Assembly (NCBI GenBank): GCA_963841505.1 | Contig: CAWJCZ010000001.1 | Span: 149,834-213,833, forward strand | Direction of reading: 5' to 3' | From: an uncultured Gemmatimonadales bacterium | GTDB lineage: Bacteria; Gemmatimonadota; Gemmatimonadetes; Gemmatimonadales; GWC2-71-9 | DNA length: 64,000 nucleotides | Shown here: in pieces, positions 8,189 through 27,831 of the stretch | How the letters are laid out: each line of letters begins with the position of its first letter | How positions within the stretch are numbered: position 1 is the stretch's first letter | Program-made: the position numbers and the translations under genes | The notes under the pieces: generated by a model | Told to the model about the DNA's origin: nothing | Databases searched by the model: none | Seen by the model: only the letters and a program-made list of their open reading frames with translations

Positions 8189-9063
8189 TGCGCACCTTCG
8201 CGTTGGTCCTCGCCGTCCTCACCGTCCCCGCTGTCCGACTTCCGGCCCAGCAGAAGATCGATCGTCGTTTCGCGGTCGATTCCGATGCCTCCATCCGGAT
8301 CAACAACCTCGCCGGCAACACCCGCCTGATCGGCTGGGACCGGGACAGCATCGTGGTCACCGGATTCGCCCCGCCGGGGACCAGCTTCTTCGGCGGTGGC
8401 TCGGGTCGGCTCGCCAAGCTGGGCCTCGAGCGGGACGAGAAGGTCCCGCTCAGCGGGTTAGGAGAGCTCGAGGTCCGGGTCCCGGCGGGCGCCCGGGTCT
8501 GGGTCAAGACCCTGGAAGGATGGATCGATGCCTCGGGCCTCTCGGGCGAGGCCGACCTGGTAACCGTGGCTGGCTCCATCAAGGTGACCGGATCGCTCCG
8601 GGTCCTCAGTGCGGAGACCCTGGACGGATCGATCGCGGTCGCAGGGGGCTCGCAAATCACCCGGCTCAAGACCGGGGGTGGAAAGGTCGATGTGACCCAG
8701 CCGGTCGGCGACCTGACGGTGTCGACCGTGGGAGGACCGGTCACGCTGCTCGCCGCCGAGCCGGCGTCGGCCCGGATCGAGACCGTCTCCGGTCCGGTGG
8801 TGTATGACGGGAGGCTCGGCCGCCGGGCCACCCTCGAGATCCAGACCCACAGCGGGGACGTGGAGCTTCGGCTGCCCCGCGACACCGGCGCCGAATTCGA
8901 CCTTCATTCCATTGATGGGACCGTCCAGGTCGCTCTGTCGCCCAAGGGTCCTTTCCCCAAGCCGGTGCACGGGAAGCCGCTCTTCTTCGGCAATGCCGGT
9001 GGCGGGGCCAGTGTGGTGGTGCGCTCCTTCAAGGGCGAGATCCGCATCGTGGGGCGCGAGTAG
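8188..9063 (+). CDS. DUF4097-type putative adhesin / beta-helical secreted protein
   Basis: ATG 8188 overlaps the anti-sigma stop by 1 nt. Signal peptide MRTFALVLAVLTVPAVRLPAQ. Repeated G.I.V.G...T..G.V strands. Confidence 0.6.
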   Translation: MRTFALVLAVLTVPAVRLPAQQKIDRRFAVDSDASIRINNLAGNTRLIGWDRDSIVVTGFAPPGTSFFGGGSGRLAKLGLERDEKVPLSGLGELEVRVPAGARVWVKTLEGWIDASGLSGEADLVTVAGSIKVTGSLRVLSAETLDGSIAVAGGSQITRLKTGGGKVDVTQPVGDLTVSTVGGPVTLLAAEPASARIETVSGPVVYDGRLGRRATLEIQTHSGDVELRLPRDTGAEFDLHSIDGTVQVALSPKGPFPKPVHGKPLFFGNAGGGASVVVRSFKGEIRIVGRE

Positions 9064-9121
9064 AATTCAAACCGCCGGCTCCGGTCCGGCATCCCAGGAG
9101 TATCTCTGACCGGAGCGTGTT

Positions 9122-9553
9122 ATGTCTCGCCTCACCCTCGCCGTCGTTGCCGGACTTCTGCTGCCCGCCGCCCTGCTGGCCAAAGGGCCGCCGTGGATCT
9201 CGATCGAGCTGCCCGCCAATCCGTGGGACCCCGAGACCCGCAACGCCTTTCTGGTGGTCCATGCGTTTCACCACGAGGTATCGCTTCCCCTCCCGGTGAC
9301 CGGCACCGCCGAAGGGATCGTGGATGGGAAGCGGCGCAGCGTGGCCCTGCAGTTCGAGCGCACCAGCCGGACCGGCGCGTATGCCCTCCGCAATCAGTGG
9401 GGCGCCAAGGGGAGGTGGGTGCTGATCATCAGCGTCAATCAGGGTGACCACGGTGACGTGGCTCAGGCGATGGTGCGGATTGCCGAAACCGGCCAGGTGG
9501 CGGGGTGGAGGTCCCTACCAGGACCCGGGACCGCGGGGTGCCCCGCCGGGTGA
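9122..9553 (+). CDS. hypothetical secreted protein
   Basis: Signal-like N-terminus MSRLTLAVVAGLLLPAALLAKG. No family recognised. The 3' end is uncertain because an alternative frame continues to about 9597. Confidence 0.45.
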   Translation: MSRLTLAVVAGLLLPAALLAKGPPWISIELPANPWDPETRNAFLVVHAFHHEVSLPLPVTGTAEGIVDGKRRSVALQFERTSRTGAYALRNQWGAKGRWVLIISVNQGDHGDVAQAMVRIAETGQVAGWRSLPGPGTAGCPAG

Positions 9554-9638
9554 CCTCGGAAGAAATCGAGGCCGCCGGTAGCCGGACGGGGCGGTAGGGA
9601 GGGGTGGCATCCCGACCGCTCGACGCCCCAGTGGTCCG

Positions 9639-10085
9639 CTACGGCTGCTTTGGCGCTGCCGGCGCTTTCTTGGCCGAACCGGACTGGTGGGTGTTGGACC
9701 CCAGCGCTCCCGTCATCGCGTCGACCGTCACGCGATCATAGCCTTCCTTCCCGCTCGTCTTGATGTTGAACACGTAGACGAGGTTCGTCTTCTCCTTGGT
9801 GATCATCCGTGCCGACACCATCCCGCCGGGAACCGCTCCCAGTGCGGTCTGCTCCGCGGCATCCGGAGTGATCTTCGCCTGTTTGAGCAGGCCGGGAGAC
9901 GACTCGTGCACCTTGTGCGTCGCGGTGTGCATCGCCATCTGGTTGGTGGGCTTGGGTGGCTGAGTAGCTGCCGCCGGGGCCGGTTTCGGGGTTGGCTTGG
10001 CGGGCTGGCCCTGCGCCGCTGCGCCAACGGCAACCGCCGCGAGCGCGAACACGAGCAACGAAGCCTTCTGAACCATACGGGTCAC
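9639..10085 (-). CDS. PepSY domain-containing secreted protein
   Basis: Signal peptide, a Pro/Ala/Lys-rich linker, then ITPDAAEQTALGAVPGGMVSARMITKEKTNLVYVFNIKT...VTVDAMTGAL (PepSY-like). Confidence 0.65.
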   Translation of the reverse strand: MTRMVQKASLLVFALAAVAVGAAAQGQPAKPTPKPAPAAATQPPKPTNQMAMHTATHKVHESSPGLLKQAKITPDAAEQTALGAVPGGMVSARMITKEKTNLVYVFNIKTSGKEGYDRVTVDAMTGALGSNTHQSGSAKKAPAAPKQP

Positions 10086-18340: not shown

Positions 18341-21094
18341 CTAACGATTGATCCAGTAGTTGAGTTTCACCAGGAAGATGTTGTCCGCCTTCGCCGAGAA
18401 GAGGGCATCGACGTCACGGGAGAACTGGAGGTCCCCGACCCGGCTGGCAAAGTCGCTGCCGCTCCGGGTCCAGACCAGGAAGAGGGTCGAGCCGGGCCGG
18501 TACTCCCATCGGATCACCGCATTGCCCCGGAGCGATCGCAGGTTGAAATCAGGATTCGACACCACCATTTCGGGAGCAGGGCCGGTCCCGTCCGGATCGA
18601 TGTGATAGGTGTTGACTCGGCCGTTGGCGTCCAGGTCGGTGGTGACCGTCCCGATTCCTTCGCCGTAGACCACCACGTCGAGGCTCCGGGGGGCGGCGAT
18701 CTCCTTGAAGCGGCTGTAATGGGCGCTGGCGATAAACGGCTGGGCGTAGAGCTCGAAGCTCAGCGTCGGGGAGAATGTCAGGCTCATCCGGGTGTCGATA
18801 CTCGCGGTCTTCTGATCGATTCCTGCGAAGAGATAGCGGGAGCCATAGAAGGCCGTTGCGGTGGCATCGGTGAACCGGCTCACGTACTGCCGGTTGCTCC
18901 GGGAGTGATCGAAGTACGGCGAAAGAGACACCGAAAAGTTCGACGCGACCCGAACCTGCACCTGGGCAGAGATGCTCTTGTCGTCGTAGCCCTCGGAGCT
19001 GCGATAGTAGGAGGGGCTGAGGCTCAATCCGATCCGTTTGCGGCTGTCGGTGTTGACGCTCAGGGAGTAGTACATGCTGCCGGGGCGCTTGACCACCGGG
19101 CCGCCGCGGGTCAGCCGGTCATCGTAGACGCTGGGCCGGTGGATGACGAACGTGTTCACACTCCAGTAGTTCCGAAACGTGCCAAACAGTCCGCCATGAA
19201 CCTGGGTGTCGGTCCGGTCGCCGTCGAAATTCATGGCGGCCTGGGTGCCCGCCACGATGAAATAGTTCTGGTACCAGCGGGTCGGCTTGCTCAGGGACAG
19301 GGCGAGATTGGTGTTGCCCCACAGGTAGTCGGCCCGGGTATTGAACGCCACGTCATTAGCCTCGAAGCCCGGGGTCCGCCAGTTCACCGTGCTCTCGAAA
19401 AGAATCTTCCCGGCGTCCTTGGCGAACCGGGTGTATCCCCCTAACCCGCGTAGCCGGCTCAGGGTCGGGTCGTACCCGTTGGTCAGGAATCCGTTGCCGT
19501 GGCTCTCCCGGTCGGGGCGCTGGAAGTACCGGGCGCTCGAATTCTGGAGCCGGAGGATCGCGGCGGGGTCGCCCACGTTGTTGGTCAGGGCGAGGTTGCC
19601 CACCACCGAATAGGTACGATTCTTCCAGCGGGCGGCGTAATCGAACCCGACCGATTCGGAGTGCCGGTTGAGCCGCTGCACCAGCAGGGGATCCTCCAGC
19701 GAGCGGATCACCGAGGTGACCATCCCACCCACCACGAGGTTGCCGCCCCGCATGTCCTGCTTCATCCGGCCCACGAAATAGTTGGTGAGTGGCTCGACTT
19801 CCTGCTTGATCTCGTCGCCATCTACCAGCGCCGTGGCGCGCTCCCGGCCGGTCACCGCGTTGAGGAGGCCCAGGGTCGTTCCGCCCCGGGTCCGGCCGGT
19901 GACCTTGGCCGCGCCGAGGATAGAGGTCGCGTCCGGAATCGAGGAATAGGTCGCATCGGAGGGGAGCACCCCTTGGGGCGACCGGCCGATTCGCCGGCTG
20001 TAGAAGAGCGACAGCGACGACACGTTGCTGCAGAAGAAACAGCTGAAGCCGCCGAACCCGAAGGTCCCGCTGCCTTCGATGAAGAAAGGCCGCTTCTCCT
20101 GAAAAAATGTCTCGAACGCCGAGAGGTTCACCACCGCGGGATCCACTTCGACCTGGCCGAAGTCCGGATTGATGGTGGCGTCGAGCGTGATGTTCGAAGT
20201 CAGCAGGTACTTGAGGTCCGCGCCAAACCGGCCGTCCACCTTGCGCTGGTGATAATACGGGTCGCCGGGGTCGCCCGGCTGGAGCCGTTGATAGCGCGCC
20301 ACCGTGTAGGGCAGGAGCTCCAGGCGGCGGGCCGATGACTGGCCCGGCATCAGCTCGGTGATGTGGCCGAACCGGGAAGGCCCACCGGTTTCATCGGGCC
20401 CCCAGTAGGACCACATCGAGATCTCGTTGGTGCGCGCTTCGGTCCGCCAGACCTGCATCCCCCAGACCTGCACCGAATCCCGCGCAAAACGAAGTTGGGA
20501 GAACGGAATCCGGAACTCGGCGGTCCAACCCAGTGAATCGATCTGGGTTTTCACTTGCCAGACCGGGTCCCAGGATTCGTCGGCGTTTTCGGACGCCTGG
20601 CCGGCGTCACTCTTCACGCCCGAGGGATTGACCGAGAAAATGGTGCGCCCCAGATGGTTGTGGTACGTGTCGAAAATGAACTGAATCAGATCGCTGTTGG
20701 CCGCCTCGCCGTCGCGCCGGACCAGCTGACTCCGCACCCCCGCGGCTCCCTTCTCATCGAACATCCGGGCGCCGAGGTACAACGCATCGTCGTCAAAGAG
20801 AATCCGGATCTCGGTCCGCTGGGTCGCGGGATTTCCCGGGTTGGGCTGCGCTTGCCGGAAATCCGTGGCGATCTGGGCCTCTTTCCAGACCGCCTCGTCG
20901 AGCTTTCCATCCAGGATGATCGGAGTATCCCGTCGGAGCGCGCGAATCGAGGGCGACGGAATGGCGTGCATGGCGGCGGTGTGGGACTCGCGAGAGACTG
21001 AGCCCTCATTGCTTGCGGCCTGGGCGCCGAGCCGGACCGGGGCGGCGGCCGTCAGGAGGAGCATCCATTGGGGAAAGCGCTTCCGCATTGCCAC
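18341..21094 (-). CDS. CBM9-like + DUF5916 outer-membrane beta-barrel protein
   Basis: 917 aa with a signal peptide. IILDGKLDEAVWKEAQIATDFRQAQPNPGNPATQRTEIRILFDDDALYLGARMFD is the CBM9/DUF5916 N-terminal signature. The ORF is uninterrupted. Confidence 0.7.
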   Translation of the reverse strand: MAMRKRFPQWMLLLTAAAPVRLGAQAASNEGSVSRESHTAAMHAIPSPSIRALRRDTPIILDGKLDEAVWKEAQIATDFRQAQPNPGNPATQRTEIRILFDDDALYLGARMFDEKGAAGVRSQLVRRDGEAANSDLIQFIFDTYHNHLGRTIFSVNPSGVKSDAGQASENADESWDPVWQVKTQIDSLGWTAEFRIPFSQLRFARDSVQVWGMQVWRTEARTNEISMWSYWGPDETGGPSRFGHITELMPGQSSARRLELLPYTVARYQRLQPGDPGDPYYHQRKVDGRFGADLKYLLTSNITLDATINPDFGQVEVDPAVVNLSAFETFFQEKRPFFIEGSGTFGFGGFSCFFCSNVSSLSLFYSRRIGRSPQGVLPSDATYSSIPDATSILGAAKVTGRTRGGTTLGLLNAVTGRERATALVDGDEIKQEVEPLTNYFVGRMKQDMRGGNLVVGGMVTSVIRSLEDPLLVQRLNRHSESVGFDYAARWKNRTYSVVGNLALTNNVGDPAAILRLQNSSARYFQRPDRESHGNGFLTNGYDPTLSRLRGLGGYTRFAKDAGKILFESTVNWRTPGFEANDVAFNTRADYLWGNTNLALSLSKPTRWYQNYFIVAGTQAAMNFDGDRTDTQVHGGLFGTFRNYWSVNTFVIHRPSVYDDRLTRGGPVVKRPGSMYYSLSVNTDSRKRIGLSLSPSYYRSSEGYDDKSISAQVQVRVASNFSVSLSPYFDHSRSNRQYVSRFTDATATAFYGSRYLFAGIDQKTASIDTRMSLTFSPTLSFELYAQPFIASAHYSRFKEIAAPRSLDVVVYGEGIGTVTTDLDANGRVNTYHIDPDGTGPAPEMVVSNPDFNLRSLRGNAVIRWEYRPGSTLFLVWTRSGSDFASRVGDLQFSRDVDALFSAKADNIFLVKLNYWINR

Positions 21095-21272
21095 CTCTGC
21101 TGGATCCCGTTGGGTCGTAACGGGATTTGATGCCTCGGAGCAGCGAAACGTTGCCGCCGAACCCTCGTCAGACCGACCCGGTCACTACGACAATGCCGCC
21201 AGGAAGGTTCTGAGCCATGAACTCGACACCGATCCTCGGAAATCATTTGAATTCAGCTTTCAAGGCGCCGAG

Positions 21273-21301
21273 TTGAATCGGGCGGATGATCAGCCTATCT
21301 T
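21273..21301 (+). promoter_or_regulatory. sigma-70-like promoter candidate for efp (TTGAAT-N17-TATCTT) overlapping an 8-bp palindrome
   Basis: TTGAAT at 21273-21278, a 17-nt spacer, TATCTT at 21296-21301. The hairpin CAGCCTAT-cttt-ATAGGCTG at 21291-21310 overlaps the -10 element. Confidence 0.3.
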
Positions 21302-21334
21302 TATAGGCTGTCTGCGTTTACGGGATTGGAAACC

Positions 21335-21901
21335 ATGGGAATCATTGCGAGCGACATCCGCCGGGGCATGGCGATCATTTTCAACGGGGAGCCTTGCCGG
21401 GTCCTCGAGTTCCACCACCACACGCCGGGGAATCTCCGGGCCATGGTGCAGGCCAAGCTGCGTCGCCTCAAGACCGGGACCCAGATCGAGCACCGGTTCC
21501 GCTCGACCGATACCGTGGACGTGGCGGATCTGGAAACCCACGAGCTCGACTTCATGTACCGGGCCGGGACGACCTACCACTTCATGAACGCCGACAACTT
21601 CGACCAGCTCGAGATCGACGAGGAAACGCTGGGCGATGCCGCCAAGTGGATGGCCGAGGGCATGCGGATTCTGGCGGAGTGGTACGAAGGGCGACCCATC
21701 GGGATTCAGCTTCCGTCCGCCCTCACGCTCGAGGTGGCGGACACCACCCCGGTCATGAAGACCGCGACCAAGACCGCCTCCAGCAAGCCCGCCACCCTCA
21801 GCAATGGCGTCACCATCAACGTGCCTGAATTCATCCAGCCCGGCGAGCGGGTACGGGTGAATCCGACCACGGGCGAGTACATCGACCGCGCCAAGGAATA
21901 A
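21335..21901 (+). CDS. efp: translation elongation factor P
   Basis: Full-length similarity to EF-P (FNGEPCRVLEF...AKLRRLKTG...YHFMNADNFDQLEI...KPATLSNGVTINVPEFIQPGERVRVNPTTGEYIDRA). ATG 21335 is preferred to the track TTG at 21326. Confidence 0.9.
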   Translation: MGIIASDIRRGMAIIFNGEPCRVLEFHHHTPGNLRAMVQAKLRRLKTGTQIEHRFRSTDTVDVADLETHELDFMYRAGTTYHFMNADNFDQLEIDEETLGDAAKWMAEGMRILAEWYEGRPIGIQLPSALTLEVADTTPVMKTATKTASSKPATLSNGVTINVPEFIQPGERVRVNPTTGEYIDRAKE

Positions 21902-21970
21902 GGGTCAGACTCCTTTTCCTGGTCCGCGATGGAATGATTCGCGGCGCGGAAAAAACGGTCCCCTTCTTTA

Positions 21971-22201
21971 GTGGCATTGGACCGAATCTGGAGGAATGGC
22001 GAGGCTGCCCGCTATTTCCTTCCTGGAATTCCCCAACACGTCATCCAGCGCGGGAATAACCGCTCGGCCCTGTTCACCGCGTCGGATGACTACCGATTTT
22101 GCCGGTTTCTTCATGGAATTTCGGGCCTTCAAGCAAACTGCAGCTTCCGCTCTCTCTGGGTTCGGTCGCCCACTAAGATCGTCAACAGTAGACGCGAATG
22201 A
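21971..22201 (+). mobile_element. truncated REP-associated tyrosine transposase / IS200-like TnpA (COG1943) stub
   Basis: YFLPGIPQHVIQRGNNRSALFTASDDYRF matches the conserved N-terminus (PG.P.H.IQRGNNRQ..F..DEDY) of RAYT-type transposases. The catalytic remainder is missing. Confidence 0.5.
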
Positions 22202-22333
22202 GCGTGGGAACAGGGATGGAACCGATCAGCGCCTAGCTACTGCGAGTTTGGCCGACCGCCGATTGATCCTTCCCTGGTCCAGTTACCTCGACGACGCCCC
22301 CGGCCATCCGGATCGACTGGTCACGCGGCACGC

Positions 22334-22393
22334 TATAAGATGTTATAGTCGCGCGTCACGACTACAAGATGTTATAGTCCGACCTAACCCGCC
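22334..22393. repeat. REP-like element: 14-bp direct repeat AAGATGTTATAGTC (22337-22350, 22366-22379) flanking hairpin TAGTCG-cgcgtca-CGACTA, followed by CCTAACCCG
   Basis: Read directly from the sequence. The minus strand contains GTAG next to the palindrome, as in REP heads. It lies 130 nt downstream of the transposase stub. Confidence 0.55.
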
Positions 22394-22513
22394 TCAATAA
22401 TTGCTTGCGTACTAACCGGATTTTTTGTACCTTCGTGTGGAAGGCCTTGTCCGTTTGCTGCATACCGGTTTCCTGTGGGCGCACCTAACGCCGCAGCAGA
22501 GGGAGGAGAGCGA

Positions 22514-23860
22514 ATGTCTCTCTTCAGACGATCCAAGCCGGCATTGGGCCATCTGTTCATAATTGCCGTGGTGGCCGCCTGTACTGAAAGCACTATCGGC
22601 CCACGTAGGCTTCCATTTACTACTCTTCCACTATTCTCGGTCCATTCCATCTCTGATGACCAATGGCCATTTTCTCTCAGTCCTTCAAACAGCAATGACA
22701 CTGTTGGCCCCTACACCATCACCACTCTACCCCGGTGGACTCTCCTAGAGCTGATCGTGTCCGGATCTGAGGAGGCTACGTACGAGTATGGGCCTCATAT
22801 CGGGGAGGCGACTGGGTTCACTTAGGGACCAGGTGGTGAGCCAACTCTCAGCGGTTGTTCTGGAGCGAATATCGCCATCACCTTCACCACAGGAGGTGGC
22901 TACACGTGGTGTGGGAACGACACAACGTCCAGTGTCGTCTCAATCGCCAAGGGGACGGGGGTAGTCTTTTGGAATCCGGGGCCTGGGGACGTACACATAC
23001 CCGAGTGCGGTCGCCCTCCATATAGTCCGTGTTACTCGATAAGCGGGACTTTCGATGTAACTGTTAAGAAACCTGCCACAACGCTTTCTTTAACTCCGGA
23101 TGCAATCTCGACCACGGCCGGAGCAGAACTAACCTGGTATCTCACCCTGACACCCTACAGCTACCACGGAGTAGCATTTCCGTTTCAGATCCAGGATTAC
23201 TGGAAGTACTACGCTGACTCTGGAGGAACGTATTCTGTTTGCCTTTTCTACGACAGTTGTTCCTATTCTCCAACGAAGACTGGAACGATCAAGGTCCCTG
23301 TGTTTGTCCAGGGAGACAGCGTCATGATGTTTGGCAAAGTCTACGTGTTCCCATGCCTGATTGGAGACTCCTTGCTTGACGACCCGATCATCCGACAGGG
23401 CCTTCGTGATGCATGGGCTGGCTCCAACCCTGATGGGAATGCCAATGACCGTACTGAGAGATACGGTGGCAAGGCTTGCACGAACGGAGTGTGTTCTCCA
23501 GTGTTGGGACCTATCGGGGCCAACGACAACGCTTGCAGGAATTTCCCGAGCGATCCGTCTGGAAGTTGGACAGTCACCTGGCATACCCACCCGTTCATGC
23601 CAGGTGATACCCTAGACCCACTACCATCGGATTCTACGAAGTGCGCTTGGCCAAGGGACACGAATGGGAATCCTTTTCAACCGCCGAGTCCCCGTAAGTC
23701 AGCTCCAAGGCCCTCACGTGAAGATCGGGTGACCAATTCCTGGCTTCCAAGAATCGTGATAGACAAGCAGAACGTCTACTTCTTACCCGCCAATGATACC
23801 CTTACGGTCAAGACCTTCGACAGGAACACTTGCGACCCGCTTGCCGGTGCTATCTATTAA
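22514..23860 (+). CDS. lipoprotein with Cys-rich middle region and tentative JAB/MPN-like C-terminal motif, interrupted by one in-frame TAG (22823-22825)
   Basis: GGAGG plus ATG 22514. Lipobox IIAVVAAC. Frame 2 is open from 22514 to 23860 except for the TAG (hand-translated). The C-terminus has ERYGG...WHTHP...PSREDRV. Track ORFs 22475..22825 and 23300..23860 are in the same frame. Confidence 0.55.
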
Positions 23861-23900
23861 ATGCGATGGTGGGAGGGTCATCCCAGCCTTGGAGTTCAAG

Positions 23901-24302
23901 ATGCGATACTCGACACTTCTAGTATTCGTCGTACTCAGTGGGGTTTCGACAGCTGCTCGTAGTCAGTCGAGTTGCTTGAACGACGGTGGAGTGGGCCTCC
24001 AACTCATTGCACTCAAGCAGATGGTTGCCTCCAATGATTCACTAACATTGGCCAAGCTGTCGATCATTAAAGTTGACAGCTCACAGGTTGTGGCGGTATC
24101 GACCGACTCGGTCTGCTCGCCTGCTGTCTCGTCCTTCCGCTCCAAACTCGGACTCTCAACTAGTCCGACAACAGCCTATGTATTCCAGGTCGGAGCCAGT
24201 CGTTTGGTAGTGCTGCATCCCTCCATCGGATCGGGCGAGTTTCGAACCCACGTTGTAATGCGAGCATCGGATTACGTGGTTCTTGACGTCTTTGAAGGCT
24301 AG
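23901..24302 (+). CDS. small secreted hypothetical protein
   Basis: ATG 23901. Signal peptide MRYSTLLVFVVLSGVSTAARSQ. 133 aa, low GC, no recognisable family. Confidence 0.5.
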   Translation: MRYSTLLVFVVLSGVSTAARSQSSCLNDGGVGLQLIALKQMVASNDSLTLAKLSIIKVDSSQVVAVSTDSVCSPAVSSFRSKLGLSTSPTTAYVFQVGASRLVVLHPSIGSGEFRTHVVMRASDYVVLDVFEG

Positions 24303-24329
24303 CACTTGCAGTGGGCCGAGGACCCCATT

Positions 24330-25448
24330 TCAGACCCGCAGTACGAGACCCCGTCGCTCCATAACCCGCAGTATCCCGTACCACAGCGCCACAAACCCGA
24401 TCGCATAACCGAGCGAGGCGACTCGTGGCGGCAGCCACGACGCGAATGCGGCGTGGTAGATCCCCTGTTGCAGCGACGTCGTGCCGTCGGCCGAGGGCAG
24501 CCGGATCATGCCGAGGACCCGGGCCATCGCCCCGGAGCCAATGAACGCGGTGAGCGGGTTGAGCCCATAGGTCACCAGCGGCGCGGCCCAGCGATTCTTT
24601 CCCTTGACGTCCATGATCCAGGAAATCACCCCGAGGATTACTGCGGCCATCCCGGCGGTGAAGACCACGTAGGAGCTGGTCCACAGGTTCTTGTTGATGG
24701 GGAGGGCCCAGTTCCATACCAGGCCCGCCATCATTCCAATCGCTCCGGCCGAAAACAGGCCGTTCAGCCGTTCGGCCAGCGGAAGGGGCCGGGTCAGCCA
24801 GCGCCCGGTGAGGAGACCGAGGAGACAGGTGCCAATCGCCGGCAGGGTCGAGAGGAGACCTTCGGGGTCCCAGGTCCGGGATTCCTTCCAGAGGTGGGTG
24901 CCGAAGATGCTACGGTCGATCCAGGCCGACAGGGTCTCGCCCGGAACATCGATCGTGGGATGGACAACCCCGGGCGGCGCAATGAGGGTCTGAAGGCCCC
25001 AGTAGCCGAACAGGAGCACGACGACGATCAGGGTGATCCGACGCCAGGAGCTGCCCCGGGCCAGGAATGCGGTGGCCAGATAACACAGGCCGATCCGCTG
25101 GAGCACGCCGGGGAAGCGAACTTCGGTGATTCGGGTCAGGGGAAACCACGGGAAGGACTGAAGCATCAAACCAAGGAAGATGATGAGCAGTCCACGCTTC
25201 AGAATCCGGAGCCGGACCGAGGCAGGTGCAATTCCCCTCCGCTCGGCACTCTCCAGCGAGAGGTGGCTGGTGATGCCCACGATGAATACAAAGAACGGGA
25301 AGATGAGATCGGTCGGGGTCCAGCCGTGCCAGGGTGCGTGCTCGAGCGGCGGGAAGATCGCGCTCCAGGTCCCGGGATTGTTGACCAGCAGCATCCCCGC
25401 GATAGTCAGGCCGCGGAATGCGTCCAGGGCGGCGAGGCGCTCCCGCAT
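24330..25448 (-). CDS. acyltransferase, heparan-alpha-glucosaminide N-acetyltransferase-like (DUF1624/DUF5009)
   Basis: GGAGGA plus ATG 25448. RLAALDAFRGLTIAGMLLVNNPG...PLEHAPWHGWTPTDLIFPFFVFIVG is the family signature. The track ORF extends spuriously to 26159. Confidence 0.75.
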   Translation of the reverse strand: MRERLAALDAFRGLTIAGMLLVNNPGTWSAIFPPLEHAPWHGWTPTDLIFPFFVFIVGITSHLSLESAERRGIAPASVRLRILKRGLLIIFLGLMLQSFPWFPLTRITEVRFPGVLQRIGLCYLATAFLARGSSWRRITLIVVVLLFGYWGLQTLIAPPGVVHPTIDVPGETLSAWIDRSIFGTHLWKESRTWDPEGLLSTLPAIGTCLLGLLTGRWLTRPLPLAERLNGLFSAGAIGMMAGLVWNWALPINKNLWTSSYVVFTAGMAAVILGVISWIMDVKGKNRWAAPLVTYGLNPLTAFIGSGAMARVLGMIRLPSADGTTSLQQGIYHAAFASWLPPRVASLGYAIGFVALWYGILRVMERRGLVLRV

Positions 25449-25521
25449 GATTCCTCCGACGAGGTATCTTCCGAATGAGTCTCCCAAGATACCGTCGTTC
25501 AGCAGGTTGTGATTCAGTATC

Positions 25522-27831
25522 GTGCAAAACGCTCTAGACGCCCTGCTCGCCTTTCTCTTCAAGTTCCCCCCGCACTTGTTCAAGCGCGGGGTTCTGGCTC
25601 TGGCCCCGGACCTGCCGATCCCGCTTCTGATCGGAGCGATCGGAATCGGACTGGCGGTGATTCTCTTCGCCTTGCGGGGACTCCGAACCTCCGCCCCAGG
25701 ACGCGATCGCCTGGTTCTGGGCGCGATCCGGCTCGCGGTCGTGCTGCTCCTCGCCGGCTGCCTGATGCGACCGGTGCTTCTGCTTTCCAGCTCGGTTCCC
25801 CAGCGTAACATCCTCGCCGTACTGCTCGACGATTCGCGCAGCATGCAGCTTCGTGACGTGAACGGCGCGCCCCGGCTCGATGCGGTCAGGGCCGCCTTCG
25901 GCGATTCGGCGGCCCTGGTGCGACGGCTGGGCGAACGATTCGTGCTTCGATTCTTCCGTTTCGGGGCCGATGCCGGTGCGATCACCGGAACCACGGCACT
26001 CAAAGGCAACGGAACCAGAACGGATCTCGCGGGTGCGCTCCAGGCGGCCCAGGATGAGCTGGCGGGCGCTCCGCTCGCCGGTCTGGTCCTGGTGACCGAT
26101 GGCGCCGACAACGCCGGCGCCGACCTCACCGCGCCCCTCCTCTCGCTACGGGCCCGCAAGGTCCCGGTCTACAGCGTCGGGGTCGGGCAGGAGCGATTCG
26201 AGAAGGATGCCGGGATCGAGCGGGTTTCTCTGCCGGCGAGCGCCCTGACCGGCGCCGGGGTGATGAGCGAGGTCGCGATCCGGGTGCGGGGCTTGAGCGG
26301 CCAGGAACTCGCGGTGGTGGCAGAAGACGATGGCCGGGTAGTCGCCGAGCGCACGGTGCCGATTGGCAAGGAGGACGTGGCACGGGTTCAGCTTCGGCTC
26401 CCCCAGCTCGCACCCGGGTCGCATCCGCTCACCTTCAAGATCCGGCCGATCCCGGGAGAAATCGTCACCGAGAACAACGAGTATCGCAGCGTGCTGCGGG
26501 TCCGGCCCGGGCCCGAAAAGATTCTCTACGTCGAAGGTGAGCCTCGTCCCGAGCTGGCATTCATCCGCCGGGCGGTCTCGGGAGACAGCGCGCTGCAGCT
26601 GGTGGCGATGCTGCGGAGCGCCAAGGGCAAGTATCTCCGGCTCGGCGTGGACGACAGCCTCGAGCTGGCGAGCGGCTTTCCGACCCGGCGCGAGGATCTG
26701 TTCCGTTACCGGGCGATCGTCCTGGGGAGCATCGAAGCGTCGTTCTTCACCGGCGATCAGCTCCGGATGATGGCCGACTTCGTGAGTCGCCGGGGGGGCG
26801 GCCTCGTGGTCCTGGGCGGCCGATCGGCGCTCGCCGAGGGCGGCTACGCCGATACTCCGCTCGAGGACGTGTTGCCGGCGGGGCTCCGGCGCCCGGCCAA
26901 TGAGGAAACCGACCCGGTCGCCATCGAGCTGACCCCCCGACTCACCCCGGCGGGCAAGGTCCATCCGATTCTTCAGCTCGGCGCGACCGAAGCGGCCGCG
27001 GCGCGGTGGGATTCGATGCCGGCGCTGACCTCGGTTAACCCGCTCGGGCCCATCAAGCCGGGCGCGACGGTGCTCCTCAACGGGAAACCTGCAGGGACCA
27101 CCAACAACACCGGAGCCGGCCAGCCGCTGCTGGTGGTGCAGCGGGTGGGGCGGGGCACCGTGGCCCTGCTCGACGTCCAGGACACCTGGCTCTGGCGGAT
27201 GGACGCGCGGATTCCGGTGGAGGACCGGACCCACGCGACGTTCTGGCGTCAGCTGCTCCGCTGGTCGCTGGACGGGGTGCCTGAGCGGCTCGAAGTCGCA
27301 TCCGCACCGACCCGGGTGGGTCCCGGGGAGCCGGCGACCATACGGGCCCGCCTGGTGGACCAGAGTTATCTCGACGCCAATGACGGCAACGTGATCGCGA
27401 GGGTGGTGGCACCGGGGGGAGATACCATCGAAGTGCCGCTGACCTGGACCATGCGGGGCGATGGGATCTACGAGGGCCGCTACGTGGCTACCGATCCGGG
27501 GGTCTATCGGGTCGAGGCGGAAGCCCGGCGGAACGATGAGCCGGGCCTGATCCGCGCGGATCCGGCCGCCCTTCTGGTCGATGACTTCGGGGCCGATGTC
27601 GAGCAGCCCGAGCTCCGGACCCAGCTACTCGAGCGGATCGCCGGGGAAACCGGAGGCCGCTACTACCCGCTGCGCGAGGCAGCCCGACTCTCCGAGGACG
27701 TCGGGTACACCGAGAGCGGAGTTACAGTGCGGGAATCCCATGACCTGTGGGACATGCCGATCGTGTTTCTCCTTCTGGTGGGCCTCCTTGGGACCGAATG
27801 GGCCTATCGCCGCCGCCGGGGACTCGCGTGA
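25522..27831 (+). CDS. membrane-anchored vWA domain protein with C-terminal GATase1-like region (first gene of the MoxR/Bat-like operon)
   Basis: N-terminal TM segments. MIDAS LLDDSRSM...VTDGADN. Later ...ILYVEGEPRPELAFIRRA...VLGGRSALAEGGYADTPLEDVLP, with a C-terminal TM. Confidence 0.65.
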   Translation: MQNALDALLAFLFKFPPHLFKRGVLALAPDLPIPLLIGAIGIGLAVILFALRGLRTSAPGRDRLVLGAIRLAVVLLLAGCLMRPVLLLSSSVPQRNILAVLLDDSRSMQLRDVNGAPRLDAVRAAFGDSAALVRRLGERFVLRFFRFGADAGAITGTTALKGNGTRTDLAGALQAAQDELAGAPLAGLVLVTDGADNAGADLTAPLLSLRARKVPVYSVGVGQERFEKDAGIERVSLPASALTGAGVMSEVAIRVRGLSGQELAVVAEDDGRVVAERTVPIGKEDVARVQLRLPQLAPGSHPLTFKIRPIPGEIVTENNEYRSVLRVRPGPEKILYVEGEPRPELAFIRRAVSGDSALQLVAMLRSAKGKYLRLGVDDSLELASGFPTRREDLFRYRAIVLGSIEASFFTGDQLRMMADFVSRRGGGLVVLGGRSALAEGGYADTPLEDVLPAGLRRPANEETDPVAIELTPRLTPAGKVHPILQLGATEAAAARWDSMPALTSVNPLGPIKPGATVLLNGKPAGTTNNTGAGQPLLVVQRVGRGTVALLDVQDTWLWRMDARIPVEDRTHATFWRQLLRWSLDGVPERLEVASAPTRVGPGEPATIRARLVDQSYLDANDGNVIARVVAPGGDTIEVPLTWTMRGDGIYEGRYVATDPGVYRVEAEARRNDEPGLIRADPAALLVDDFGADVEQPELRTQLLERIAGETGGRYYPLREAARLSEDVGYTESGVTVRESHDLWDMPIVFLLLVGLLGTEWAYRRRRGLA

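Follow-up and report, generated by a model that had tools for sequence, protein, structure and literature searches.

Positions 21902-24329 of the DNA considered here, the window (a 64-kb stretch of exactly 64,000 nucleotides from an uncultured Gemmatimonadales bacterium, contig CAWJCZ010000001.1; coordinates count from the first letter of the stretch), separate the gene for elongation factor P, efp, from one for a NagX-type membrane acyltransferase, and are foreign in composition. The explanation that we favour, and hold to be probable, is that of a composite insertion: a dead element of the RAYT/REP type (REP-associated tyrosine transposase, with units like repetitive extragenic palindromic sequences), within which is nested a module of two genes. 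Gene 1 would specify an exported enzyme with a JAB-type domain and is broken here by a TAG codon; gene 2 specifies a small exported partner that would be its inhibitor or immunity protein. The locus is a small, clear case of layered acquisition and decay: a cassette became nested in an earlier REP/RAYT element, and the enzyme was later lost, with its partner kept. Since the window copy of gene 1 is a pseudogene, its direct physiological importance here is probably small. The value of the locus lies in the uncharacterised family to which it points, the locus itself being a decaying remnant.

That the interval is acquired DNA inserted between two native genes is well supported, given a break in composition and an empty site in the closest relative. 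Its GC (guanine plus cytosine) content is 54.3% versus 66.8% for the remainder of the window; sliding windows of 300 nt within it give 50-58%, and with all other kilobases at 61% or above it is the sole dip on that scale. It also ranks top in the window for tetranucleotide deviation (z=5.4). GC content at third codon positions (GC3) is 0.56-0.57 in its three open reading frames (ORFs) versus 0.82-0.88 in efp, nagX and the neighbouring DUF5916 and Bat-like genes, and the codons AGA, ATA, TTA and CTA together amount to 1.5-4.8 per 100 codons versus 0-0.6 in the same four neighbours, which makes them approximately 5-20 times commoner. An earlier sequence-only reading of this DNA had taken the interval for horizontally acquired cargo of low GC content with a shift in codon choice (AGA, ATA, TTA), and on all of this it is borne out, by composition, by the empty site and by the occurrence of the module in unrelated contexts elsewhere; only its estimate of 68-70% GC for the flanks was too high, the immediate flanks having 61-66%. 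The Logan assembly of sequencing run ERR11718635 (L088) is 100% identical over 3170 bp that cover both junctions, which argues against a chimeric assembly.

With the acyltransferase as query, 80 related loci were retrieved, mostly from metagenome-assembled genomes (MAGs) of Gemmatimonadales/Gemmatimonadota, and these allowed the efp-acyltransferase junction to be compared. In the closest relative, L001 (identities: NagX 84%, Bat-like 88%, DUF5916 82%, EF-P 93%), the convergent stop codons of efp and nagX are only about 20 bp apart and the empty site is made up of a single REP-like unit; in L004, L006, L007 and L011 the gap is 11-117 bp. None of the retrieved relatives encodes a homologue of any ORF of the interval, gene 1 and gene 2 included, and the flanking DNA on both sides has conserved synteny with them. 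Because the junction is empty or differently filled from relative to relative, it is a site of repeated gene flux, of recurrent gain and loss, and what it holds in the window is lineage-specific.

The older layer lies just 3' of efp. A RAYT-type Y1 (HUH) transposase pseudogene, frameshifted, occupies 21996..22337 on the plus strand, its true start being the ATG at 21996 behind a GGAGGA Shine-Dalgarno sequence with a one-base loss soon after. What had been described as a 76-codon stub of a REP-associated tyrosine transposase has real N-terminal homology, about 35 of its residues aligning to the N-terminal end of 'transposase' proteins from plasmids in which PF01797 (Y1_Tnp) is present, but the remnant is longer than the stub. 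The telling comparison is with L217, a locus found via its EF-P cluster (EF-P 93% identical), in which a PF01797 gene (L217:6570-7200) lies immediately 3' of efp on the same strand. Its DNA is clearly homologous to that of the window over a stretch that starts with the efp stop, takes in the Shine-Dalgarno sequence and ends some 130 bases into the coding region. Against the reconstructed L217 protein, a first window fragment (22010-22105) is 75% identical to residues 6-37 (E 1e-13) and a second, in another frame (22272-22331), is 60% identical to residues 138-157, 'PWSSY..PD.L.T.H' (E 6e-5). L217 residues 38-137, with the HUH motif NHVHLL and the tyrosine region RYIELNP, have no counterpart in the window, in keeping with the original perception that the catalytic part is missing, and the remnant is a catalytically dead Y1/RAYT-type fragment. 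The L217 gene is itself frameshifted, near its RYIELNP motif. (There is no nagX between efp and the Bat-like gene in L217.)

In L217 a perfect inverted repeat of 13 nt, GGGGTCAGACTCC / GGAGTCTGACCCC, flanks the Y1_Tnp gene on both sides, with ends about 620 bp apart. Its left unit has its equivalent in the window: a 13-mer, AGGGTCAGACTCC, at 21901..21913 (plus strand), directly after the efp stop codon as the same unit is in L217, and intact at 12/13 positions; the 13-nt unit at the edge of the insert reads GGGTCAGACTCC. The right unit, at 24314..24327 on the minus strand (GGGCCGAGGACCCC on the plus strand), is just before the nagX stop codon and aligns weakly with both the unit of the L001 empty site (GGGCCTGACCCC) and the right repeat of L217 (GGAGTCTGACCCC). 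That GGGTCAGACTCC and GGGCCGAGGACCCC might be a target-site duplication was considered and rejected, since the two are better explained as the REP-like units on the left and the right side of the older element. Within the window the 13-mer has one good copy, which is no more than chance. In a Gemmatimonadaceae MAG, five copies of GGGGTCAGACTCC, three direct and two inverted, are present within about 100 nt (L018:20100-20200), and arrays of short units in both orientations have the look of REP/BIME/REPIN clusters (PMC3116915, PMC3337134). The REP-like repeats reported for the interval, for which no coordinates had been given, thus stand as regards the 13-mers, which by their behaviour in relatives appear to be the truly REP-like sequences at the locus; the 18-nt palindromes described below are read otherwise. 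The likeness to RAYT/REPIN systems (PMC3116915, PMC3337134, PMC5581495) is in the placing of the L217 Y1_Tnp gene between short GC-rich inverted repeats and in the direct and inverted arraying of the unit in L018; the differences are that the window copy is without HUH and tyrosine motifs, that its right repeat is degenerate and that the unit is only 13 nt. On this evidence a RAYT-type Y1 transposase between 13-nt REP-like units would have settled just 3' of efp, with its catalytic core lost thereafter.

Homology to the L217 element ends at 22333 and resumes only at the right REP-like unit, so that about 55 nt of that element are replaced by about 2 kb in the window. In place of the single insertion previously perceived, the insert is a module of some 2 kb nested in an older RAYT/REP element, and L217 carries the older element after efp without cargo. 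The younger layer, foreign in composition, comprises a palindrome pair, gene 1 and gene 2, all within the 3' part of the RAYT element. The palindromes are two direct copies of an AT-rich 18-nt imperfect palindrome, CTAyAAGATGTTATAGTC, at 22333-22350 and 22362-22379 (plus strand), 29 nt apart and 135-180 nt upstream of gene 1; the window has no others, and chance alone would give 0. A related pair is present upstream of a homologous module in L081 (9777-9815), where its orientation is inverted, and the motif is absent upstream of more distant modules. A metagenome scan with the 14-mer AAGATGTTATAGTC gave only single chance matches in low-GC contigs, none of which encodes the module. Taken together this suggests that the 18-nt palindromes are not REP and may be a control element, a candidate operator or promoter, of this module sub-lineage. 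As to the means of arrival, the dead transposase is the only mobility gene in the window, and in L217 it is present at this site but free of cargo; neither an integrase nor a clean or convincing target duplication is seen in the window. In or beside the insert, no tRNA was found by tRNA searches, no family by an Rfam scan, and nothing above chance by a pattern scan for promoters and terminators.

Gene 1 (22514..23860, plus strand) had been taken for an intact lipoprotein gene, which it is not: an in-frame TAG is present at 22823..22825, where the closest homologue, P0001, encoded in L081, has TAC for tyrosine. If the two parts are joined, the product aligns to 97% of P0001, an intact protein of 455 aa, at 40% identity, and in a tblastn search with P0001 one high-scoring segment runs across the TAG (E 1e-82); in homologues gene 1 is a single uninterrupted gene. 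After the TAG there are 344 codons without a stop (P about 9e-7), with 13 stops in each of the other two frames, and all conserved motif residues are retained downstream of it. The TAG is identical in Logan assembly L088. An open frame of this length, retention of these residues and the TAC of the homologue point to inactivation by a recent nonsense mutation, TAC to TAG. Such a change would truncate the enzyme after 103 residues and leave its partner intact in the manner of an orphan immunity gene, the small partner thus being the only intact member of the pair in this genome.

What the intact protein would be like is better judged from its relatives. A profile search of 1.84 billion representatives yielded 502 at E<=1e-3, 58 of them at <=1e-30. 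The lipobox, of which the cysteine codon as read from the window sequence is 22580-22582, is conserved in the family (VAAC, TQGC, LSGC). An AlphaFold2 (AF2) model of P0001 made from a 119-sequence alignment (pLDDT 91.5, pTM 0.82; with only 4 sequences the pLDDT was an unusable 39) has a disordered lipoprotein leader, a beta-sandwich at ~41-190, an Ig/PKD-like domain at ~195-285 and an alpha/beta C-terminal domain at ~290-455. PKD matches in Pfam are found in 33 of the 119 members, and the N-terminal beta-sandwich has weak Foldseek matches to LecA-type lectins and DUF4785. An intact gene 1 product would be a Sec/Lol-exported lipoprotein in which a beta-sandwich at the N-terminus is followed by a PKD/Ig-like domain and then by a JAB/MPN+ domain rich in disulfides. 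Some 10 of the top 150 relatives match only N-terminal profile positions ~16-258 and have other C-terminal regions, of 250-350 aa and with no Pfam match (among them P0017, P0032, P0068, P0080, P0088, P0090, P0095 and P0100, two of these N-terminal-only relatives having HExxG-like motifs), which suggests a common N-terminal module with exchangeable C-terminal domains.

The C-terminal domain (23351..23857 in the window) has the motif E...HxH...SxxD, which is the JAMM pattern, and in the window this reads E...HTH...S..D with every member present: Glu at 23456-23458, His at 23582-23584 and 23588-23590, Ser at 23714-23716 and Asp at 23723-23725. In P0001 these residues are Glu321, His366, His368, Ser409 and Asp412. 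They are nearly invariant in the 119-sequence alignment (E in 115/116, the two H in 112/119 and 114/119, S in 105/119 with T in a further 5, D in 116/116), as are three cysteines of what is a disulfide-rich domain. In the model a first helix leads up to the Glu, after which come two strands, a strand ending in HxH and a helix starting at SxxD; that order of secondary-structure elements is the arrangement in JAMM structures. With Pfam, Ig signals apart, only two families recur: DUF4329 matches 3 members (best E 7e-4) and Prok-JAB matches 2, all below cut-off. The family consensus matches just these two, over the Glu-to-HxH stretch, Prok-JAB with 17.8 bits (E 0.0032) and DUF4329 with 15.8 bits (E 0.014). 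When the core of the insertion, some 25 residues, is excised from the consensus, the edited version attains 25.2 bits with Prok-JAB (E 1.6e-5; cut-off 25) over profile positions 17-103 of 114. Foldseek against BFVD gave a 'deubiquitination hydrolase' at probability 0.99 (TMt 0.40); the full-length search was swamped by the beta-sandwich, and matches in the PDB came only from beta-sandwich domains, with none to the JAB-like domain. A word-index search with the C-terminal domain alignment found two proteins only; tblastn of the JAB-like domain against phages and plasmids found nothing meaningful; PADLOC, PHROGs and NCBIfam have no match for the transposase stub, gene 1 or gene 2; and there is no gathering-level Pfam match for the gene 1 family.

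We are fairly confident that the C-terminal domain belongs to the JAB superfamily. Since the canonical spacing and the curated thresholds are missed, it is described as a divergent new branch rather than as a member of DUF4329 or Prok-JAB. The sequence-only reading could place neither protein; gene 1 now has its place as divergent JAB/MPN+, near Tox-JAB-2/DUF4329 and Prok-JAB, and gene 2 is still unmatched. By its conserved residues the domain would bind zinc via the Glu, the two His and the Asp, and might hydrolyse a peptide or isopeptide-type bond outside the cytoplasm.

Several known systems invite comparison. Prok-JAB/JAMM (MPN+; PF14464), the best Pfam match, has in common with gene 1 the E...HxH...SxxD motif and the order of elements in the AF2 model. 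JAMM metalloproteases such as AfJAMM and Rpn11 are cytoplasmic, without disulfides, with a spacing of 7-10 residues, and act on ubiquitin-like tails, whereas the gene 1 family is exported and has a long insertion. Serralysin/AprA with Inh/AprI, and Tse1 with Tsi1, are a secreted protease and a periplasm-acting type VI secretion system (T6SS) effector, each with a periplasmic inhibitor or immunity protein. The likeness to these is one of arrangement, an enzyme gene being followed by one for a small exported protein that guards the periplasm of the producer; there are no type I secretion system (T1SS) or T6SS genes nearby in the window. Closer at hand are the polymorphic toxins. Tox-JAB-2, which overlaps Pfam DUF4329, is a C-terminal domain of such toxins with the signature 'E, H[ST]H, S, D', and Zhang et al. 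2012 noted secreted stand-alone versions of it also (PMC3482391). Gene 1 has the same signature, weak DUF4329 matches (3 members and the consensus) and a small cognate gene next to it. It differs in that its family falls below the DUF4329 cut-off, has an insertion of about 40 residues, with a conserved cysteine, between HxH and SxxD, and also has several conserved disulfide cysteines; in that its N-terminus is a lipoprotein signal, beta-sandwich and PKD rather than RHS, PAAR or WXG; and in that gene 2 is exported and not detectably Imm-NTF2-2. Tox-JAB-1 of Bacteroidetes is found on RHS proteins, with an NxxxE motif, and its immunity protein Imm65 has, unusually, a signal peptide and lipobox (PMC3482391). 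Gene 2 partners likewise all have a signal peptide, with a lipobox in L084 and L094, but gene 2 gives no Pfam match, to Imm65 or otherwise. Imm65, as the exported lipoprotein that gives immunity to a JAB toxin, is nevertheless a precedent for the way in which gene 1 and gene 2 are read here.

Gene 2 (23901..24302, plus strand), which ends in a TAG stop, is the real and intact ORF for a small signal-peptide protein that had been perceived there: 133 aa, with a signal peptide and two conserved cysteines. A search with its single sequence found no homologues; comparison with the gene immediately 3' of P0001, which specifies 139 aa, shows 37% identity (E 3e-23). Co-occurrence elsewhere, for which a search had been suggested, is strict, and the two genes form a real module. 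In all seven contexts that could be fully judged (the window, L081, L084, L090, L091, L094 and L093), a partner homologue, recognised by BLASTP and hidden Markov model, is directly 3' of gene 1 on the same strand with a gap of 0-40 nt. The downstream gene specifies 143 aa in L084 and 138 aa in L094, with a leader that ends in a lipobox in both, 147 aa in L090, where it overlaps the gene 1 stop codon, and 136 aa in L091; in L093 it is uncalled and present at E 6e-18. In the short contigs L085 and L089 only the first part of a gene in that position is visible. The partners align with two invariant cysteines, all have a signal peptide, and in a six-sequence alignment they are 14-34% identical. 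Export signals, read from sequence, and conserved cysteines are thus features of both products. A ubiquitin-like partner was considered and dropped, there being no conserved C-terminal GG. From strict pairing, export of both products and the fast divergence of the partner, the candidate role that suggests itself most economically for gene 2 is that of a cognate inhibitor or immunity protein, which would bind and neutralise the enzyme in the periplasm of the producer. The resemblance to effector/immunity or enzyme/inhibitor pairs that the sequence-only reading had perceived is thus plausible, and takes a sharper form as a JAB-type exported lipoprotein with an exported partner.

The GC content of the module falls short of that of its surroundings by 3-13 points in every context, as judged from the higher-GC flank. 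In L081 the module borders a low-GC island, lying at its edge, and the island has genes for Rep_1, reverse-transcriptase-trypsin and KAP NTPase. Between module and Rep_1 gene (L081:11900-12120) there are three to four repeated fragments that resemble a tRNA 3' end (...GGGGCGGGACTCGAACC...); ARAGORN finds no intact tRNA among them, and they could be what is left of attachment sites used by integrative elements. Divergent from the L081 module (8622-9680, minus strand) is a gene for a 352-aa membrane protein with a zinc-protease-like motif, HEMGHALG, and no Pfam match on record, followed by genes for 134 and 329 aa; none of the three is present in the window. Two distant modules (L090:121-4412 and L091:3918-11704) adjoin prepilin-type (N_methyl) genes and a sigma-54 two-component system, pilin-type neighbours that might suggest some connection with a type II secretion or type IV pilus-like apparatus, though shared synteny could be all there is to it.

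Several other accounts of the interval have to be set against a composite insertion. One has it not foreign at all, but a native region whose composition is odd, or else the product of wrong assembly in a metagenome bin. The source is indeed a metagenome-assembled genome, and the richness of gene 1 in Ser, Thr, Asn and Pro lowers its GC content somewhat, but the drop of some 25-30 points in GC3 is far beyond what amino-acid content effects, relatives have empty sites, a second assembly is identical over both junctions and both flanks run into conserved synteny, and we regard this account as scarcely credible. Another is that the Y1 transposase brought the module as its cargo, the whole 2.4 kb being one transposon between REP-like units. 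The module is between a left and a right unit and beside a transposase remnant, as this would have it; in L217, however, the same element at the same site has its ends ~620 bp apart and no cargo, the transposase gene is cut short at its 3' end by the module rather than adjoining it, the L081 module has no Y1 gene nearby, and RAYTs are described as typically single-copy (PMC5581495). This transposon scheme is accordingly very unlikely. A little less remote, and still unlikely, is that gene 1 is functional, with the TAG a sequencing or consensus error, a minor population allele, or read through. All 344 codons after it are open, every motif residue is intact, and one base change would turn the TAG into the homologue's TAC; yet the window and the ERR11718635 assembly agree base for base, nothing points to recoding, and TAG is the ordinary stop at the end of gene 2 in the same insert, for which reason its recoding was judged unlikely.

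As to what the pair does when intact, a tentative proposal, which we put forward as possible, is that it represents an undescribed and widespread class (at least 500 clusters, from metagenomes, some of soil) of Sec/Lol-exported antagonistic or self-controlled module, in which a disulfide-stabilised JAB metallopeptidase lipoprotein would act in the envelope, perhaps on an isopeptide-type bond (peptidoglycan stems, lipoprotein-peptidoglycan links), with a periplasmic immunity protein of new fold, the two moving in a cassette of 2 kb that brings a palindromic control element along. Alternatively, and this is the chief rival, gene 1 would be a non-antagonistic exported hydrolase, for envelope remodelling or degradation of an external polymer with binding by its lectin-like and PKD domains, and gene 2 a factor for its folding, anchoring or maturation. 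We treat this as a doubtful idea that merits attention: the beta-sandwich is weakly like LecA-type lectins and DUF4785, PKD is recognised in 33/119 members, a toxin-delivery domain is lacking, several modules are in ordinary chromosomal contexts by pilin-like and two-component genes, and the ten or so relatives that join the N-terminal part to other C-terminal domains do so in the manner of secreted enzymes with a common binding module. Against it, strict 1:1 adjacency with a small partner evolving as fast as 14-34% identity implies is more typical of inhibitor/immunity pairs, the module is compositionally foreign in every context with the L081 copy in a mobile/defence island, and here it is the enzyme that has been lost and the partner kept. 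The composite insertion with an inhibitor or immunity gene has its own difficulties, and the following count against it. The spacing from HxH to SxxD is about 40 residues including a near-invariant Cys (H368 to S409 in P0001), not ~7-10, and no native member attains the Pfam gathering score, the 25.2-bit match being to an edited consensus only. None of the 119 members has an RHS, PAAR, LXG/WXG or filamentous haemagglutinin Pfam domain. The partner has no match in Pfam, NCBIfam, PADLOC or PHROGs, nor its profile in the PDB, so that chaperone and substrate are candidate roles beside that of inhibitor. No poly-immunity arrays were seen in the contexts examined, the 18-nt motif is common only to the closest module, L081, and in the opposite orientation there, and the right REP-like unit of the window is degenerate.

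The JAB/MPN+ enzymes so far known are mainly deubiquitinase-like peptidases of the cytoplasm, together with toxin domains of RHS/T6SS effectors that are poorly understood. To these the gene 1 family would add a version that is exported, rich in disulfides and anchored by lipid, and that always has a small exported partner. Should the pair be enzyme and inhibitor or immunity protein, it would be a tractable two-gene system for ascertaining the cleavage targets of an envelope-acting JAB enzyme and the means of its neutralisation.

The native flanks are as the sequence-only reading had them, efp and a conserved membrane acyltransferase, with Pfam and NCBIfam in agreement. The left, efp (21335..21901, plus strand; GC3 0.88), matches EFP_N, EFP and Elong-fact-P_C. 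The right, an HGSNAT/NagX-type acyltransferase gene (24330..25454, minus strand), matches HGSNAT_cat (1.9e-9) and, below the equivalog cut-off, the NCBIfam NagX model (2.7e-49). Its mechanically called ORF, 24330-26159, begins at an upstream TTG and specifies 609 aa; by homology and Pfam, translation really starts near 25454 (MRERLAALDAFRG...), and the extra upstream part overlaps the Bat-like gene on the opposite strand. On the other side of efp, the 240-nt intergenic region between it and the DUF5916 gene has a second, smaller GC dip (21050-21330, 55-58%), and at this DUF5916-efp site L216 and L217 have several extra genes inserted. In other relatives the efp-nagX junction has contents of its own: a PadR regulator and a 905-aa ADOP/FtsX-type permease, about 3.2 kb, in L002 (3310-6311) and also in L003, L005, L008, L010 and L015, and only a permease fragment in L012 (2907-3358). 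The short spacers of L004 (11119-11173), L006 (11119-11236) and L007 (11119-11208) are filled by lineage-specific 7-8-nt tandem repeats with inverted copies, examples being GAGTGGC, GGGAGCTA and AGGTGAC.

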